Source of the DNA: a virus
Taxonomy: Duplodnaviria > Heunggongvirae > Uroviricota > Caudoviricetes
Length of the DNA: 7,129 bases
Reading direction: 5' to 3' (one strand)
IMG/VR virus record: IMGVR_UViG_2693429700_000008
Translations under genes and position numbers: made by a program
Notes under the pieces: generated by a model
The model's input: only the letters and a program-made list of their open reading frames with translations
Told to the model about the DNA's origin: nothing
Databases searched by the model: none
Part shown: positions 1 through 6,410 of the stretch, piece after piece
How the letters are laid out: each line of letters starts with the position of its first letter
Position numbering within the stretch: position 1 is the first letter of the stretch

Positions 1-903
1 CCCGCCGTACACGGTGTCGTACTGGGTAGCGTATGTATTTTTCCAGTAATACGTCGTGTCACCACAAACCCACGGCACATCTGCAGCACTGCCACCATGG
101 CACTGCGCGTTAAACACGGAGAGGTCAGCACGAAACTGTGTCAGCATGGCTGTAAACAGCGCAGGTTGCTGTGCGTGGGTGGCGGCGCTCATGTCAAACT
201 CTCCCTGCATCCAGCACACCGCCAGCAACACATTTTTCGGGTTCTTCTGTAATGCAGCTTTGGTGCGCGCAATCAGGTCCTGATATAACGGTTTACCCAC
301 CCCCCAGCGCGCCGAATCCTGGCTGGCCCCCGTGTCCGCACTGAATGTCCCCTCCGCGCCCTGGGTAAATGCCGAACCACCACGACAGCATGGTACCAGC
401 AGGATCCCCGCGTTATTCGGGATATACGGGAGCAGTTTTTTGGCAATATGTAACCCCTGGCCGACACAGCCGTACTGCCCTTTGCTCAGGTCTGCCTTCG
501 GATGATTCAGCGTACTCATATCCTGCACATCATGCAGGCAGTGGTCGGCCGGAATAATATCGTTATATCTGCAGGCAGCCCCACCCGGCGTCACTGTACT
601 GCGGCGCGCCAGCTGTTTAATGCGCGGATCCGGAGCATCGTATGAATCCGGCAGCGGAAGCCCTTCACCGTAAGCCATGGCATTGGACTGCCCGGCCAGT
701 ACGATGACGTAGTACCAATCCGGCTCAGTTGCACCACTGACCACCACATCACCTTCTGCTGTAATCGCCTGCATCAGGGTATAAGGGGTTATGGCCACCG
801 GACTACCAAACGGCTGCCAGCCCTCTTTCAGTTTGTGTGTCAGCTTTTCCGCAAGGTCTGACGGCGACGCCGCCCTGACAACATCATAATGTTTAAATGT
901 CAT
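1..903 (-). CDS. nanS-p: Sialate O-acetylesterase, NanS-p-like (DUF1737-like N-terminus + SASA/SGNH esterase domain); 5' partial gene, continues beyond window start
   Basis: Minus-strand frame is open with no stop from ATG at 903-901 down to position 1 (301 codons); absent from the supplied ORF track, presumably because it has no stop inside the window. GGAGG lies 4 nt upstream of the ATG. Translation starts MTFKHYDVVRAASPSDLAEKLTHKLKEGWQPFGSP and contains VLAGQSNAMAYGEG (GQSN, SGNH block I, codons 71-74) and LAVCWMQGEFD (W-x-QGE block), as expected for prophage SASA-family esterases. Confidence 0.7.
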   Translation of the reverse strand, partial: MTFKHYDVVRAASPSDLAEKLTHKLKEGWQPFGSPVAITPYTLMQAITAEGDVVVSGATEPDWYYVIVLAGQSNAMAYGEGLPLPDSYDAPDPRIKQLARRSTVTPGGAACRYNDIIPADHCLHDVQDMSTLNHPKADLSKGQYGCVGQGLHIAKKLLPYIPNNAGILLVPCCRGGSAFTQGAEGTFSADTGASQDSARWGVGKPLYQDLIARTKAALQKNPKNVLLAVCWMQGEFDMSAATHAQQPALFTAMLTQFRADLSVFNAQCHGGSAADVPWVCGDTTYYWKNTYATQYDTVYGG

Positions 904-946
904 TATTCCTCCCGGCCGGGATAGTGTATTAAATCAGATATGGAGT

Positions 947-991
947 GGGCTGTAGTCCGGAAGCCTGAATGACACACGGGGACTACAGCCC
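947..991. repeat. Perfect 12-bp inverted repeat (GGGCTGTAGTCC / GGACTACAGCCC) with 21-nt spacer, in the 5' leader of the esterase gene
   Basis: Arms at 947-958 and 980-991 are exact reverse complements; no adjacent T-run on either strand, so not a canonical intrinsic terminator. Confidence 0.5.
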
Positions 992-1086
992 AAGAAATGA
1001 AGAAGGCCACGCAGTTGCGCAGCCTGATAAACCCTGGTTAAAATCCACACGATAACAACACAACAATATCAGTATCTCATGCTATT

Positions 1087-1111
1087 GCCCGAACCCATTC
1101 GGGCATTTTTT
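1087..1111 (+). terminator. Intrinsic-terminator-like hairpin, plus-strand orientation
   Basis: GCCCGAA-CCCA-TTCGGGC (7-bp stem, 4-nt loop) followed by TTTTTT on the plus strand. Confidence 0.4.
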
Positions 1112-1117
1112 ACCCAT

Positions 1118-1148
1118 AAAAAATGCCCCTCCGGAGAGGGGCATTTTT
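1118..1148. terminator. Bidirectional rho-independent terminator
   Basis: AAAAAA-TGCCCCTC-CGGA-GAGGGGCA-TTTTT: 8-bp GC-rich stem flanked by an A-run and a T-run, so a hairpin plus U-tract forms on either strand. Sits between the TerB-like/small-ORF block and the esterase gene. Confidence 0.65.
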
Positions 1149-1345
1149 GCATGCACATTCTTTTTCTTGCATGGTGCCGGGTGCCTCCCGGTGAATTCAG
1201 TATCAGCACCTGAATCCGCGATTATCACATATACCTACTTGCTGATTGCCCCTCCGCACAGGGGGATTCACCATGCAGTAGTATTTTTAATAAACAGCAA
1301 ATAAAAAAATCAAGCATTATGCAGGCTGTTTCTTTTTATCACCGG

Positions 1346-1477
1346 CTACAGCAATACCACAATGCCGCAGACCAGCACCCCATCCGCCAGCACCGACATG
1401 ATTCTGCTGGTGAAATCCACCATCACCACCAGAAACAGCAGGAGTGCAGCCACAGCCAGGCGCAGTTTTACCGTCAC
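1346..1477 (-). CDS. Hypothetical small hydrophobic (membrane) peptide, 43 aa
   Basis: GTG start at 1477-1475 overlaps the TGA of the upstream TerB-like frame (GTGA), with GGAG 8 nt upstream. Translation VTVKLRLAVAALLLFLVVMVDFTSRIMSVLADGVLVCGIVVLL, stop TAG at 1348-1346. Not in the ORF track (too short). Confidence 0.25.
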   Translation of the reverse strand: MTVKLRLAVAALLLFLVVMVDFTSRIMSVLADGVLVCGIVVLL

Positions 1478-1935
1478 AGGTGATTCTCCAGACGAAGACC
1501 CAGAACACCGGCAATCTCTTCCAGCACCTTGCGCTCTTCCGGCTCAATTTCGCCGTCTGCCTCCGCAATGGCCACCGCCACATCCAGCACATCTTCCGCT
1601 TCACGCGTATCGTGTTTCACATCCTCGATCTCACGTAACGCCGCACGACGACCAATTTTAAAGTTCGTATCCAGCTGACCGATAATGGTTGCGCTAATCG
1701 CATTAATTTCTGACGTAAACGCGGACAGCGCAGGCTGATTACGCAGTACCTGTTCGATCTTCGCTTTCTAGGAAGCCTCACATTCACCATCTGCACAGGC
1801 CACCAAGTAGGCAGCATTAATAACCGCCTGTGCCAGATCGCGTTTCTCAAACTTTCCTTTTTCCGGTTAACGTGACACACCAATAACTCTTGTCGAAAAA
1901 GCCAGCAAGCTGAAAGACCGGTATTCACAACCACC
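1474..1935 (-). pseudogene. TerB-family (tellurite-resistance TerB-like) gene remnant, disrupted by in-frame stops and a frameshift
   Basis: The frame ending in TGA at 1476-1474 translates to ...KGKFEKRDLAQAVINAAYLVACADGECEAS*KAKIEQVL...EDVLDVAVAIAEADGEIEPEERKVLEEIAGVLGLRLENHL, two ADGE-type repeats typical of TerB-like domains. It has an in-frame TAG at 1770-1768 and TAA at 1869-1867. The FFDK-like N-terminal segment (LAGFFDKSYW) lies in a different frame upstream, and no ATG is present. The N-terminal boundary is approximate. Confidence 0.5.
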
Positions 1936-1965
1936 AGCGCGTTTACTGTACTGCACCAAGTTTAC

Positions 1966-1995
1966 GGGCACAAAAAACCCGCTCAGTGGCGGGTT
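1966..1995 (-). terminator. Rho-independent terminator downstream of the lipoprotein gene
   Basis: Minus strand reads AACCCGC-CACTGA-GCGGGTT followed by TTTTTTGTG: 7-bp stem, 6-nt loop, U-tract. Lies ~78 nt after the lipoprotein stop. Confidence 0.65.
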
Positions 1996-2072
1996 GCTAT
2001 CACAGCTATATATTTACTTATTATGCCGTTACTAACATTTATCTTCGACATATAATCGAAAACAAGGTTTGC

Positions 2073-2498
2073 TTAAAACTCTGCTTTCATTTTATCCGGG
2101 AATTTTTTATTTGCAGCATAATAACTACCAAGTACATAAGCGTTCATTTGCTGCTCTACATCAACCCGACATGCCGCACTAGAACAAGCTCCACTGATAA
2201 GCCCAAAAGAACTCCCTTTAGCAGAGAGATCAGCTTTGATTTCCTCTACAGTGTTTTTCCCCATAGCAACTACACACCCTGTCACAATATATCTAGCTTT
2301 CACATCATCCATGCTAAGGATAGTAGTTTTCGCAATTTTGCTGTATCCATCATTTTTATAAACATCCATGGCAAACGCACGGCAATCTGTATAATACGGA
2401 CTTGCTTTAACTTGCGAATACTCAGGTAATTTCATACCAGCACAACCAACTAAACAAAAACCTATCGCTGCTATTAATACCTTTTTCATTACAGTCAT
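2073..2498 (-). CDS. Putative secreted lipoprotein of unknown function (moron cargo), ~137-141 aa
   Basis: ORF with lipoprotein signal peptide MKKVLIAAIGFCLVGCAG (lipobox LVGC). The real start is probably the second ATG at 2489 (MKKVL) rather than 2498 (MTVMKK). The mature part has four further Cys. The gene and its flanks are markedly AT-rich (roughly one-third GC by eye) compared with the ~50% GC phage genes around it. Not recognised as Bor, Cor, Lom or a known lysozyme inhibitor. Confidence 0.75.
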   Translation of the reverse strand: MTVMKKVLIAAIGFCLVGCAGMKLPEYSQVKASPYYTDCRAFAMDVYKNDGYSKIAKTTILSMDDVKARYIVTGCVVAMGKNTVEEIKADLSAKGSSFGLISGACSSAACRVDVEQQMNAYVLGSYYAANKKFPDKMKAEF

Positions 2499-2586
2499 AA
2501 CCTAGAAGCATCATTGAAACTAATTTATTAAATAACCATCGAGTTTCTGGAATACAGACGTTAACCATCTCTCCAAAATCTAAAAG

Positions 2587-2615
2587 ATAATAAGAAAAAA
2601 TGTTTAACGCACCAA
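2587..2615 (-). promoter_or_regulatory. Candidate sigma70 promoter for the lipoprotein gene
   Basis: Minus strand: -35 TTGGTG (2615-2610), 17-nt spacer, -10 TATTAT (2592-2587), ~90 nt upstream of the lipoprotein start and downstream of the tR'-like hairpin. The region is AT-rich, so chance hexamer matches are possible. Confidence 0.35.
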
Positions 2616-2642
2616 TCCATTTCATAGTTTCATGAGACATCA

Positions 2643-2675
2643 GGCACAAAAAAACCCGCTCAGCGGCAGGTTTTT
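2643..2675. terminator. tR'-like terminator after the late promoter (weak hairpin, A-run/T-run on both sides)
   Basis: CACAAAAAAA-CCCGCTCAGCGG-CAGG-TTTTT. Minus strand gives CCGC-TGA-GCGG followed by TTTTTTT. It is a diverged copy of the hairpin at 1966-1995. Confidence 0.5.
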
Positions 2676-2703
2676 GACATTTACCAACGGTAGACATACA
2701 AGG

Positions 2704-2747
2704 CCCATCGTTGAGAAAATCTTATCCATATTTTTTGAAAAATGCAA
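2704..2747 (-). promoter_or_regulatory. Late promoter pR'-like with lambda-type initial transcribed/pause element (probable Q utilisation site)
   Basis: Minus strand: -35 TTGCAT (2747-2742), 17-nt spacer, -10 TAAGAT (2724-2719), then TTTCT and CAACGATGGG (2713-2704). As I recall it, lambda pR' has the same CAACGATGGG stretch, containing the -10-like AACGAT pause inducer. Lies ~30 bp after the Q stop. Confidence 0.5.
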
Positions 2748-2778
2748 GTATCACGTCGACATCTTCGGCGAAAATTAT

Positions 2779-3531
2779 CTATCTTGTCACTTTTCTCAAT
2801 TGCGATTCAGCATACGCTTCTTCCTGCCAGCACTTTGTAACCAGTTTATTAATAACGTCTGCATATCCTTTGTACCACTGATAATCCGTCAGGTCCGGTA
2901 CCAGTTTCTGGACATGATGCCGCGCCAGTGTGGTTGGTAAACGGCTAAACCGGTTGCCATTGCAACGCCCACAAATCTTATAAACAGGCACACCATGAAG
3001 CCGGGTTCTTTTTTCATCCAGGACAATACCTTTACCCTTACACCCTCTGCACGCTGTGCTGACTTCTCCCTTACCATGGCAATGCTGACATAGTTCCTTC
3101 ACCCACTCTTCCTTGATAACAGATTCCCCGCTTCTGGAGTGTTTCACCACTTCGCGCAATACATTATGAAATCCAGTACCAGCACAATGCTCACAGCGAG
3201 CCTTACTTGCCGCAGACCTGGAATAATCAGCAAAGGCAAAATTCACAAGGTAAGGGATGATCTGTAACCGGATTTCTTCACTCAATTTGTTCAATGTCGG
3301 GTTATCCAGTGCCATCGCGTAATTGAGCAGACCTTCAATCGCAAACTGAGGGTCCTGAACGCCAACTTTTGCCAGGAATAAAGCAAACCCAAGCGGTGCT
3401 TTCGACTGCACCATCCCCTGCGCAGCCATTACATCCGTAATTGTTAAACCACCCGAGCCTGTCGCCGGTGCGTCATCGCTCAGTTTTGGAGATTTCGGGG
3501 AGTAATATTTCGGTAAGGCTTCAAGGTTCAT
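2779..3531 (-). CDS. Q: Late-gene antitermination protein Q (250-aa, QuuQ-like family)
   Basis: 250-aa ORF; ATG at 3531 with GGAG 7 nt upstream; position immediately upstream of the pR'-like promoter. Cys-rich central region with four CxxCxGxG-type repeats. The family call is from memory of E. coli prophage Q proteins. Confidence 0.75.
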   Translation of the reverse strand: MNLEALPKYYSPKSPKLSDDAPATGSGGLTITDVMAAQGMVQSKAPLGFALFLAKVGVQDPQFAIEGLLNYAMALDNPTLNKLSEEIRLQIIPYLVNFAFADYSRSAASKARCEHCAGTGFHNVLREVVKHSRSGESVIKEEWVKELCQHCHGKGEVSTACRGCKGKGIVLDEKRTRLHGVPVYKICGRCNGNRFSRLPTTLARHHVQKLVPDLTDYQWYKGYADVINKLVTKCWQEEAYAESQLRKVTR

Positions 3532-3544
3532 GCTCGTTCTCCAC

Positions 3545-4540
3545 TTACGCCAGTACGCCTATTGCCAGCGCACGATCGATAAAACGAAATATCAGCTCCA
3601 GCTGGGAACCATACTTCTCTTCAAATGCCACAGTATCCGCATGCAGCTCGTCGTGATGCTTTCTGCACAAAGGCAACACAAAGAGGTCATGCGCTTTTGT
3701 ACCCATTCCCCCCTGACCGTGGCCTATCAGGTGGTGGGGATCATCAGCAGGCTTTCCACAACATGCACACGGCTGTGTCTTAACCCAGCGTGTGTACTTT
3801 TCATTAACCCAGCGGCGACGTTTTGGGCGTAACATAAAAGACTCCGGCGACTCCGGATCCACTTTCAGCGCCAGCACCTTTTTCGCCTTATCCTGGATGA
3901 TGCTGGTGGCAGGAACCGAAGGCACAAGGTCACTTTCCCGGGTGACAGACGGCACAACAGGCTTCGGTAATCTCAGTGCCTTACGGGCTGCACTTTCCGG
4001 TAAGGCATCCGCCAGGTCATTACGAATCAGCCACCAGCACAGTTCCGGCATTGTCACAACGTGACTGTCATCAAAACCGAGATCCCGACGCACAACAGAC
4101 AACACCCAGCGGGCACAGTTATCCGTTGCCATTGATTCCAGCCGTTCCGTGAACTGATCACGCAGCTGGTTATCGCAGTGCCAGCACAGACGGATTGCGC
4201 CCGGCGCGTGTCGCATTGTGGTCATGTTCTCTCTGTGCCAATCGGAATGAGGCCACTGGCAGCCTTTTTCACGAAGTAACCAGCTTTCAAGACATTCCAC
4301 GCCACCAGCACGACGGATCACTGCCTCATTGCGGAACACGGCCCGAACGGCAGGATCATCCACCAGCGGTTGTGATGCCGCCGGAACGGCACCACTGGCG
4401 AAAGATGAATAACGTTCCGGCTCAGGCTCCAGCAGGACACGCCCCTGCATAAACAGGGGCATCAGCTCTGAACCTGGCCTGAACAATACGATCCCCATAC
4501 GCGGGGCAATTTCAGGGGTCAGTAGTGCTCTCACGGTCAC
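3545..4540 (-). CDS. DUF968-family (YdfU-like) prophage protein with C-terminal Cys/His (HNH-like) motif
   Basis: 331-codon ORF directly upstream of Q. C-terminal CACCGKPADDPHHLIGHGQGG...LCRKHHDELHAD. Start is uncertain: GTG at 4540 is 1 nt after the KilA-N stop, and GTG at 4534 has GAGG 5 nt upstream. Confidence 0.65.
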   Translation of the reverse strand: MTVRALLTPEIAPRMGIVLFRPGSELMPLFMQGRVLLEPEPERYSSFASGAVPAASQPLVDDPAVRAVFRNEAVIRRAGGVECLESWLLREKGCQWPHSDWHRENMTTMRHAPGAIRLCWHCDNQLRDQFTERLESMATDNCARWVLSVVRRDLGFDDSHVVTMPELCWWLIRNDLADALPESAARKALRLPKPVVPSVTRESDLVPSVPATSIIQDKAKKVLALKVDPESPESFMLRPKRRRWVNEKYTRWVKTQPCACCGKPADDPHHLIGHGQGGMGTKAHDLFVLPLCRKHHDELHADTVAFEEKYGSQLELIFRFIDRALAIGVLA

Positions 4541-4541
4541 C

Positions 4542-5351
4542 TCAATGAACGGTATCGAGCAGCTTTAACAGCTCAGGGAATCGGGATTCGAAGAAATGCG
4601 GCTGCGTCTCGCGCGGATTTGCGGGACTGGTGATGTTCTTGCCGAACATGCAGCCTTTCGCCGTCAGCGACCAGAATTTTTTGATGTTGTTAATCGCAGT
4701 GCGGCTGTATCGTTCACGTTGTTCAACGATCCCCAGCTTTGCCATCTGGTGATATGCCTGATTAGCCGTCAGGCGGATACCATACTGTTTCAGCAGTGCA
4801 CTCAGTGACAGTGTCGGGCGACTTGAGCCATCGTGTGCATCAGCAGGAGCATCAATGGCATAGCGCGGTGCCAGATTCGGTAAGCCAACAGCCTCCTGGA
4901 GTTTCTGACAGGCACCAAGCACAGATGAGTTAGACAGGTTTAATTCCCGACGCATAAAGTCCAGCAGAATCACACCAGCCTGCATCTTGTCAGCAGCCTG
5001 TCCGGATAATTTTTCCGGTGTGCTGGTTACCATGTCGAAAGTACGGATCACCTTCAGATGGAATGACGGGCTGATCCACATTGCATAGGCATACACCAGT
5101 TCCTTGCAGACATACGTTCCCCGTTCATTTCCCCCATGAATCACACTCACCGGGTCAACACCCAAATTCTGGGTGTTGGTCAATTCATGAACAAGTTCAA
5201 CAGTTTGTTGGCTGGAAAGAAACTTTCCTGGCTCCTTGGTTCTGGCATTTGCACCAGATGCTACTGCTGCGTGATGTAGATCGTTCAGGCTGTAACGCCC
5301 ATAAACATCACGACGAACTTCAATACCATCAATGACCATCAGATTATTCAT
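4542..5351 (-). CDS. KilA-N domain protein (Roi/antirepressor-like)
   Basis: ATG at 5351 with AGGAG 9 nt upstream (MNNLMVIDGIEVRRDVYGRYSLNDLHHAAVASG...). The ORF-track start at 5384 would overlap rusA and lacks an RBS. N-terminal ~110 aa fit the KilA-N pattern (YSLNDL, ERGTYVCKELVYAYAMWISPSFHLKVI). Confidence 0.8.
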   Translation of the reverse strand: MNNLMVIDGIEVRRDVYGRYSLNDLHHAAVASGANARTKEPGKFLSSQQTVELVHELTNTQNLGVDPVSVIHGGNERGTYVCKELVYAYAMWISPSFHLKVIRTFDMVTSTPEKLSGQAADKMQAGVILLDFMRRELNLSNSSVLGACQKLQEAVGLPNLAPRYAIDAPADAHDGSSRPTLSLSALLKQYGIRLTANQAYHQMAKLGIVEQRERYSRTAINNIKKFWSLTAKGCMFGKNITSPANPRETQPHFFESRFPELLKLLDTVH

Positions 5352-5370
5352 ACTTCGTTTCTCCTCTTGA

Positions 5371-5760
5371 TCAGGCGGCTGCACCCGCCGTTTTCTCGTA
5401 CTTACTGATAGTGATCTCGACCTTCCCTTTCGGGATAACCGGTCCCCACTCCACCAGCATTCTTTTCACCTGACTGTCGTCTTCCCACACACCCGCGTGG
5501 GTCAGGGCGTCAAACAGCGCCTTGTTATAGTTGTCCAGATCGCGGATCCTGTTATCCGGAGGAAACAACACGATCTCCACTGAAGCAGGTGCCGACGTTG
5601 GTTTCGGCAGACGACGTAACTGCTCAATGATGGCGGCACACGCCGCGCTCTGAAATTTTCGCCCCGCCTCGCTTATCAGGCTCTTACCAGCAAATGCCCC
5701 TTTGTTGGGGTGTCGCCAGTACGTGTTCACGCTGGGCGGAAAAGGCAGTATTAGCTTCAT
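5371..5760 (-). CDS. rusA: RusA-family Holliday junction resolvase
   Basis: 129-aa ORF: ILPFPPSVNTYWRH...RIRDLDNYNKALFDALTHAGVWEDDSQV matches the RusA pattern (LPWPPSNNRYYRH...[28 protein letters not shown]). Its ATG overlaps the methyltransferase stop (ATGA). Confidence 0.9.
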   Translation of the reverse strand: MKLILPFPPSVNTYWRHPNKGAFAGKSLISEAGRKFQSAACAAIIEQLRRLPKPTSAPASVEIVLFPPDNRIRDLDNYNKALFDALTHAGVWEDDSQVKRMLVEWGPVIPKGKVEITISKYEKTAGAAA

Positions 5761-6410
5761 GCCACCATCTCCCTGACCAGTTTTTCCGCCTGCTGGCGAA
5801 CCTGCGCCAGAAATGCCTCACCACATGCCTCAAGTTCATCGCGCCCGATGTAGCTGATTGCCGGTCCCTTCCAGGTCTTGTCGAAAACAGCAATAGCACC
5901 AGCGAAGAAAGCACCTGTTGGCACCTGCTTTTCGTCTTTCGGGATAAACCAGGCAGGCAGTTCAAAACCAATACGCCCGCGAATAAAAGCAATATGATCT
6001 GCACCTTCCGGCCACCACACTTCGCCGGTGGCAGCTTTGATCAGGAAAACATAGCGCCCGCCTTTATCACGCATGGCACTGGCATGCTTCATGATGTAAC
6101 GCATGCCGGTGATGTATTGCCCCTCATGCTGACTGGCGCGGCTGTACGGGGGATTGCCAAAGGCAGCACCTTTAAGCTCCGCAAGACGTTCTGACCAGTC
6201 ATGCGCCAGCGCGTTGTCTTCCGCCGTGTAATACGCGGCACATTTGGCGTTATCACCGTCAGTGAACAGATCCAGAACAAACGGACCAAACAAGGTGTTA
6301 ATTCCCCAGAAAATGTTGTCCGGCGTGCGCCACTGATCGCCCACTTCCTTCAGTTCATGGGCTGGTTTGTTCCGCAGTTCTACCAGCGCCTGGCAATATT
6401 TATTACTCAT
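5757..6410 (-). CDS. Phage Dam-family DNA N6-adenine methyltransferase (orphan)
   Basis: 217-aa ORF with WRTPDNIF, FVLDLFTDGDNAKCAAYYT and FGNPPYS (N/DPPY catalytic motif IV). No adjacent restriction-enzyme gene. Confidence 0.9.
   Translation of the reverse strand: MSNKYCQALVELRNKPAHELKEVGDQWRTPDNIFWGINTLFGPFVLDLFTDGDNAKCAAYYTAEDNALAHDWSERLAELKGAAFGNPPYSRASQHEGQYITGMRYIMKHASAMRDKGGRYVFLIKAATGEVWWPEGADHIAFIRGRIGFELPAWFIPKDEKQVPTGAFFAGAIAVFDKTWKGPAISYIGRDELEACGEAFLAQVRQQAEKLVREMVA

Follow-up and report, generated by a model that had tools for sequence, protein, structure and literature searches.

The window, i.e., the whole 7,129-nucleotide stretch of DNA analysed here (virus record IMGVR_UViG_2693429700_000008), covers the late-regulatory end of a lambdoid prophage of E. 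coli, reads on the minus strand, and carries at 1474-1855 the remnant of a TerB-family gene that encodes residues 18-143 of a 143-aa protein. We consider it very probable that the window here holds a non-functional relic of the TerB (TciA-like)-DUF3927 (TciB-like) accessory module of many lambdoid prophages. The feature is an ordinary prophage pseudogene and is already labelled so by public annotation: RefSeq/PGAP lists it as a pseudogene ('pseudo, internal stop') in four independent genomes, those of an O145 strain, an O157:H7 strain, and two isolates, one from a chicken and one from a pig. Over its first 7007 bases, the window shows only four differences from a 12.8-kb stretch of E. coli Z1323CEC0019 (NZ_CP148401.1), and the RefSeq annotation of that stretch covers all of the window genes listed in Table 1, and the window-equivalent of 1474-1836 is given there as TerB 'pseudo, internal stop'.

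A TerB-family remnant in the late region

The minus-strand frame that closes at TGA 1476-1474 reads ...VSR*PEKGKFEKRDLAQAVINAAYLVACADGECEAS*KAKIEQVLRNQ...AIAEADGEIEPEERKVLEEIAGVLGLRLENHL*, and both of the in-frame stop codons named in a previous sequence-only reading, TAG 1770-1768 and TAA 1869-1867, are present in it. Upstream of the TAG there is no ATG, GTG, or TTG start, save a TTG/GTG pair 12 codons before the TAG, and codons 1-17 are absent; the lack of a start codon is thereby confirmed in this frame. The conceptual translation, with the stop masked, matches the Pfam TerB profile PF05099 at 44.4 bits (E 2.3e-11) over profile positions 2-109 of 118, well above the curated gathering score of 24.4, i.e., the remnant passes the cut-off of the TerB-family HMM. 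Two acidic (A/S)DG(E/D) motifs, each followed by E-x-K/R, are found in the remnant (ACADGECEAS[*]K and AEADGEIEPEERK); they are near-invariant among 16 homologues and align with the motifs of the Klebsiella pneumoniae TerB structure 2JXU, so that the two ADGE-type repeats from which a TerB-like gene had been proposed are borne out. An intact orthologue (P0011) can be aligned with 2JXU at E 2e-7, from residue 14 to residue 137 and with the two acidic (A/S)DG motifs in register; the ter-operon TerB has the same Pfam domain (PF05099).

The gene had been placed at 1474-1935. The TerB homology, however, stops abruptly at ~1855 and not at 1935: 1474-1855 is TerB-derived, and what lies from 1856 onward is leader. 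Over codons 18-143 the remnant has 97-98% DNA identity (97.7%) to the intact 432-nt prophage orthologues annotated as 'tellurite resistance TerB family protein' (phrog_632), and intact 143-aa versions were found at the same position in related prophages. Together with the Pfam match, these orthologues support the central proposal of the sequence-only reading, i.e., an eroded TerB-family gene in a Q-dependent late cargo slot beside an intact lipoprotein gene. None of the ter-operon genes looked for (terC, terD, terE, and terZ) occurs in the window or in the 19 related loci inspected; the neighbours in the window are the DUF3927, lipoprotein, Q, and nanS-p genes. A scan of PADLOC-DB defence models gave only one marginal partial match (PDC-S48, E 0.0028), with no stretch passing alone.

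Table 1. Features of the window, in minus-strand reading order
Feature	Position	Strand	Evidence or remark
N6-adenine methyltransferase gene	5757-6410	-	
RusA gene	5371-5760	-	
KilA-N protein gene	4542-5384	-	
DUF968 protein gene	3545-4540	-	
Q antiterminator gene	2779-3531	-	PGAP 'antitermination protein' at matching site of L001; marks start of late region
Terminator	2649-2672		Downstream of Q
Lipoprotein gene, intact, lipobox LVGC	2073-2498	-	ORF list; WP_000217632.1; phrog_4748, E 7.5e-91
Intrinsic terminator	1976-1995	-	3' of lipoprotein gene; near-duplicate of the terminator at 2649-2672
Former untranslated late (pR') transcript leader	1856-1965	-	Non-TerB; similarity to leaders elsewhere
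TerB/TciA-family pseudogene remnant	1474-1855	-	Codons 18-143 and TGA stop 1476-1474; Pfam, alignment to intact L004/L005/L007, PGAP
Deletion junction, AAA microhomology, leader joined to TerB codon K18	1853-1855	-	Three-way alignment
Premature amber codon, GAG (Glu46) to TAG	1768-1770	-	Alignment to intact alleles
DUF3927/TciB-like small membrane protein gene	1346-1477	-	Pfam PF13064, E 6.8e-12; phrog_1470, E 4e-30
STnc100 sRNA gene	1112-1302	-	146 bits, E 2e-33
AgvB (anti-GcvB) sRNA gene	1050-1111	+	96.5 bits, E 2e-18
nanS-p/SASA esterase gene, 5' part	1-903		

The lipoprotein gene is the cargo neighbour of the remnant, sitting between it and Q, and the protein (phrog_4748) is 100% conserved across strains and in free phages, i.e., mEp460, Ayreon, and Stx2c phages, in agreement with the earlier view that this neighbour is kept. 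A 24-nt direct repeat (1972-1995 and 2649-2672, 92% identical) flanks the lipoprotein gene, and each copy is an intrinsic-terminator stem-loop; this suggests that the terminator downstream of Q was either the insertion site of the lipoprotein cassette or was duplicated by it. On the other side of the module, the two sRNA genes (STnc100 and AgvB) are known prophage sRNA genes, and a weaker AsxR-like match overlaps them in 1050-1302, between DUF3927 and nanS-p. Promoter-like matches in the region are at chance level (5 found versus 3.9 expected). We take the plus-strand open reading frames over the region, and an out-of-frame 105-aa ORF at 1617-1934 on the minus strand, to be by-products of the TerB frame.

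Deletion junction at the 5' end

An unannotated segment of many other prophages has 89-93% identity to window positions 1853-1996. It is located 3' of the Q-proximal terminator and 5' of the ATG of a 65-67-aa gene (phrog_331), which is followed by a DNA methyltransferase gene and then by the ileZ/argN/argO tRNAs. We aligned the window with the leaders of such intact contexts (L005, L008, L009, and L010) and with an intact TerB gene (L007). The leader reads ...GTCACGTTAACCGGAAAAAGGAA/AAAGACATG..., the TerB gene reads ...ACGGAAATTAAAAAG/TTTGAAAAACGC..., and the window reads ...GTCACGTTAACCGGAAAAAGGAAAGTTTGAGAAACGC...; the crossover falls within the AAA at 1855-1853, and TerB codons 1-17 are gone together with everything between leader and TerB. 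A deletion at this 3-nt microhomology has fused the late leader to TerB codon 18. Codons 1-17, including the start, were lost in it, and so were the 65-aa gene, the DNA methyltransferase gene, and the tRNAs. Judged from the coordinates of the L005-like arrangement, the deletion would have measured ~1.9 kb.

This junction bears on two lesions that had been claimed for the gene. The TAA is indeed in frame, and it comes from a GTTAAC that is present in all of the intact-context leaders, ~1.9 kb away from any TerB gene; it is therefore not a mutation of the TerB gene, i.e., no gene lesion, being found in leaders that never adjoined TerB. The N-terminal frameshift did not hold up, as no homologue has the N-terminus that it implies and the 5' lesion is the deletion junction. 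We regard it as extremely unlikely that a diverged TerB N-terminus, carrying a frameshift and a point nonsense mutation (the TAA), makes up the 5' end. The shifted frame (LAGFFDKSYWCVTLTGKRKV*) matches the missing segment in length and is loosely like TerB N-termini (e.g., MSFFDK), but the implied N-terminus occurs in 0 of 170 homologues, which begin with MFGIFKKK..., MFGIFGKK..., or MESSKRK..., and the same DNA, 89-93% identical and with the GTTAAC included, precedes the ATG of the unrelated 65-aa gene in other prophages. These homologues come from a search of the hypothetical frameshift-repaired protein (MAGFFDKSYWCVTLTGKRK-FEKRD...) against 5.8 billion proteins, in which no homologue with that N-terminus was found. 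This result and the junction alignment lead us to prefer the deletion junction over the frameshift model.

Prophages that differ in their Q genes and in their downstream cargo (L005, L008, L009, and L010) share the leader at 1856-1965 at ~89-93% identity. The predicted fold of the leader is unremarkable (z -0.46 over 1853-2000), and no Rfam match was obtained in that interval. The RBS-like AAGGAA that belonged to the deleted 65-aa gene is still present in it. A TTG just past this retained AAGGAA site would enter the frame of the 105-aa ORF mentioned above, which is open in the +1 frame across the TerB remnant; this ORF is most likely a meaningless by-product, though a ribosome that loaded at the old RBS would read in this frame.

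Nonsense codons, allele census, and fate of the module

The claim that the in-frame TAG breaks the gene stands: in alignment with intact alleles the amber derives from GAG, codon 46 of 143, and Glu46 is present in 16 of 16 aligned intact homologues, a set that ranges from prophages of E. coli to jumbo phages of Erwinia. The conversion of this near-invariant Glu46 to amber is the second lesion of the module. The partner gene is damaged too. The GTG start of DUF3927 overlaps the TerB stop (GTGA) and is preceded by its own GGAG 8 nt upstream; the protein has two hydrophobic segments, and in the window it is cut to 43 aa by TGG>TAG (W44>amber) at 1348-1346, whereas the intact protein has 54-55 aa. 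The nonsense codon costs 12 C-terminal residues. PGAP still lists this shortened product as a normal protein (WP_001344632.1), and 100 genomes carry its allele, at 116 places. With the TerB lesions and the W44 nonsense codon, which the downstream partner acquired on its own, both genes of the module are damaged in the window.

Of 5426 complete E. coli genomes, 2361 have matches to the 781-nt region, at 8241 places in all; the number of copies in a matching genome has a median of 2 and reaches 15. Alleles were counted in the same 5426 genomes as exact 55-mers, chosen so that the diagnostic base falls within each 28-nt seed. For the amber (TAG) allele the count is 1006 places in 577 genomes, for the GAG version with the same flanks no fewer than 928 places in at least 456 genomes (a lower bound), and for the deletion junction 652 places in 514 genomes; please note that these allele counts are inflated by heavily sampled clones, e.g., O157:H7 and O145. 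The sequence-only reading had raised the caveat that the stops could be sequencing or assembly errors in an intact gene. Nothing was found in support of this, and the chance of it is vanishingly small: the exact TAG-centred 55-mer comes from complete genomes of many laboratories and platforms, the 781-nt region is 100% identical in NZ_CP148401.1, and the start codon would still be missing if the TAG were discounted. Since the TAG and the junction are reproduced in 577 and 514 genomes, respectively, an assembly artefact is excluded.

The lesions do not always travel together. The amber occurs with a complete 5' end and an extra A in an A-run in O157:H7 PV15-279 (L011), and the junction occurs without the amber in a protein annotated by PGAP as 120 aa long from a CTG start (P0031); the 5' deletion alone may not be inactivating, since PGAP accepts amber-free junction alleles. 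From the junction onward, this amber-free allele is 100% identical to the intact allele of O111:H8 05-3004. Compared with the window, one locus (L015) shows ~10% divergence over 1960-1600 and then 0 mismatches in 240 nt, and the amber-free junction allele (L016) differs by 19 synonymous changes and 1 non-synonymous change. We considered purifying selection on the junction alleles after the deletion and rejected it, as the mosaic divergence and the identical intact O111:H8 allele point to recombination. The 97 codons after the amber are still open and almost identical to those of intact alleles, and no decay is visible beyond the lesions named; the amber allele thus appears, on its sequence, to be either young or kept homogenised by recombination. 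The simplest reading is that a few mutational events have been shuffled among co-resident prophages by homologous recombination, and recombination with functional alleles accounts for the undamaged post-amber frame and the mostly synonymous differences with no need for a function of the remnant. A separate observation comes from E. coli SD134209 (L013, 3388-4864), where the amber allele carries a 5' IS1203 insertion and a ~156-nt in-frame internal deletion, and this copy shows that erosion of the module is continuing in other prophages.

The scenario we favor, a dead relic, would then include the following steps. The same lesions recur in other prophages in varying combinations and sequence backgrounds, and they would have spread between co-resident lambdoid prophages via homologous recombination. 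They are assumed to be neutral because an E. coli genome that carries the module usually holds several copies of it. The remnant DNA would still lie within the Q-antiterminated late transcript, presumably with no TerB protein made from it.

It is highly improbable, in our estimation, that the allele still gives a useful product, for which the candidates are a C-terminal half-TerB, an amber read-through from the CTG start, or support of DUF3927 expression. A half-TerB could come from a 48-aa GTG ORF at 1474-1620 or from reinitiation after the amber, and several features would be in keeping with it: the post-amber frame is open and conserved, a 48-aa phage family (phrog_3920) corresponds exactly to residues 96-143, DUF3927 has the GGAG of its own before the GTG, and the allele is very common. 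However, phrog_3920 most simply reflects gene calls made by annotators on this same fragment, the GTG at 1620 stands in a poor ribosome-binding context, with a GAGG only 2 nt before it, and a single ADGE repeat is half a TerB domain; the conservation is accounted for by recent recombination, as seen from the identical intact alleles and the mosaic divergence. DUF3927 is itself truncated in the window. As for read-through, no suppressor tRNA was found: the window is free of tRNA genes, and those of the related loci are limited to tRNA-Arg(tct) and a CAT-anticodon tRNA.

An adaptive loss of TerB, e.g., of a costly protein or one that interferes with co-resident prophages, which would account for the recurrence and spread of independent lesions, is very unlikely as well. 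At least five kinds of lesion have hit the module, i.e., the 5' deletion, the amber, the A-run frameshift, IS1203 with an internal deletion, and the DUF3927 nonsense codon, and the related tciABC operon of P1 has been lost in about half of one P1-like phage-plasmid subgroup (PMC9603915). Against this, intact alleles are still common and under very strong purifying selection, the lesion counts are swollen by clones that have been sampled heavily (O157:H7 and O145, for instance), and with several copies per genome relaxed selection on single copies suffices. We likewise give only a very slender chance to the idea that the amber allele has been retained and spread because switching TerB off is advantageous, or because the C-terminal single-repeat fragment works with the DUF3927 membrane protein. 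Neutral decay of one copy among several remains our preferred explanation of the window.

The intact module and its relatives

The intact gene is 432 nt long and encodes a 143-aa protein of phrog_632 ('tellurite resistance', moron category), represented by WP_001302123.1 (O157:H7 TW14359), WP_001672427.1, WP_001299895.1, and WP_000466957.1 (O111:H8 05-3004). In the loci examined it is always accompanied by a DUF3927 gene that overlaps its stop codon, and it usually comes after the phage tRNA cluster and before the SASA esterase gene. The window shares with these loci the DUF3927 partner with the GTGA overlap and the site upstream of nanS-p and the lysis genes; in contrast to them, it is without codons 1-17, the start, the upstream tRNAs, the methyltransferase, and the 65-aa gene, and it has the amber at Glu46. 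In one intact locus (L005), the middle gene of the tRNA cluster (4814-4894, 81 nt) is called 'tRNA-OTHER' by PGAP and is not called by ARAGORN; it is probably a decayed argN copy.

Pairwise dN/dS between intact alleles (L004, L005, L007, L014, L018, and L019) is 0.01-0.06 at dS up to 0.69, i.e., the intact protein is under strong purifying selection. The intact ancestor of the remnant is predicted to have been an acidic helical protein with two repeats, cytoplasmic and associated with the membrane, that worked with a small membrane partner of two helices; the intact pair may form a membrane-associated complex, expressed in the lysogen or from the late transcript. Candidate roles for the intact protein would be stress tolerance, colicin resistance, or phage exclusion. 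The literature on DUF3927, TciA, and TerB in prophages gave annotation-level mentions and a P1 CRISPRi screen, and we found no functional study of the lambdoid version in it.

Three known systems help to place the module. The first is the ter operon. The phage version has low identity to the TerB of terZABCDEF and comes without terC, terD, and terZ as neighbours, and to our knowledge a tellurite phenotype has never been shown for it. The partners differ too: reportedly TerC in the ter operon versus a 55-aa DUF3927 protein in the phage module. Binding of the ter-operon TerB to the membrane protein TerC has been reported (Turkovicova et al. 2016, cited in PMC11003894).

The second is P1, a plasmid-prophage that carries tciABC, whereas the window is part of a lambdoid prophage with a pseudogene copy. 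P1 TciA is 43-52% identical to the intact lambdoid orthologue over the full length (tblastn), and the window DUF3927 matches the 'TciB-like' family phrog_1470; tciC, however, has no equivalent in the window, where no ORF follows DUF3927 and the STnc100 sRNA gene is found instead. As in the window, tciABC is accessory cargo near tRNA, methyltransferase, and lipoprotein genes; it is often lost (PMC9603915), and tciA, tciB, and tciC were all non-essential for lytic growth in the CRISPRi screen (PMC10695390). The P1 gene order is dmt-trnT-plp (lipoprotein)-upl-tciA-tciB-tciC-trnI (PMC10695390). This order resembles the lambdoid order of methyltransferase-tRNAs-TerB-DUF3927, with the lipoprotein gene nearby in the window, and by this analogy the two could be a shared accessory module.

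The third comparison is with Stx phages, in which stxAB lies after Q, the late terminator, and the ileZ/argN/argO tRNAs and before nanS-p or the holin gene, which is the same slot as that of TerB-DUF3927. In non-Stx prophages the module lies between the phage tRNA cluster and nanS-p, at the stxAB position, although the cargo of Stx phages is unrelated to TerB-DUF3927 and the window is without a toxin gene. An Stx2k phage with the same RusA, KilA-N, DUF968, Q, and lipoprotein genes has stx2AB after the tRNAs, and this matching position makes 'late-region cargo slot' an apt name.

The remnant itself matters little; it confirms a dead TerB/TciA-type gene in the late cargo slot. The mapped ~1.9-kb deletion, which includes tRNAs, a methyltransferase gene, and a small gene, implies that the prophage is more degraded than a single stop codon would suggest. 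The intact TerB-DUF3927 pair, on the other hand, is very common (the region is matched in about 2360 of 5426 E. coli genomes), extremely constrained, and located in the slot that holds the toxin genes of Stx phages, and it is this intact module, not the remnant in the window, that is the worthwhile experimental target.
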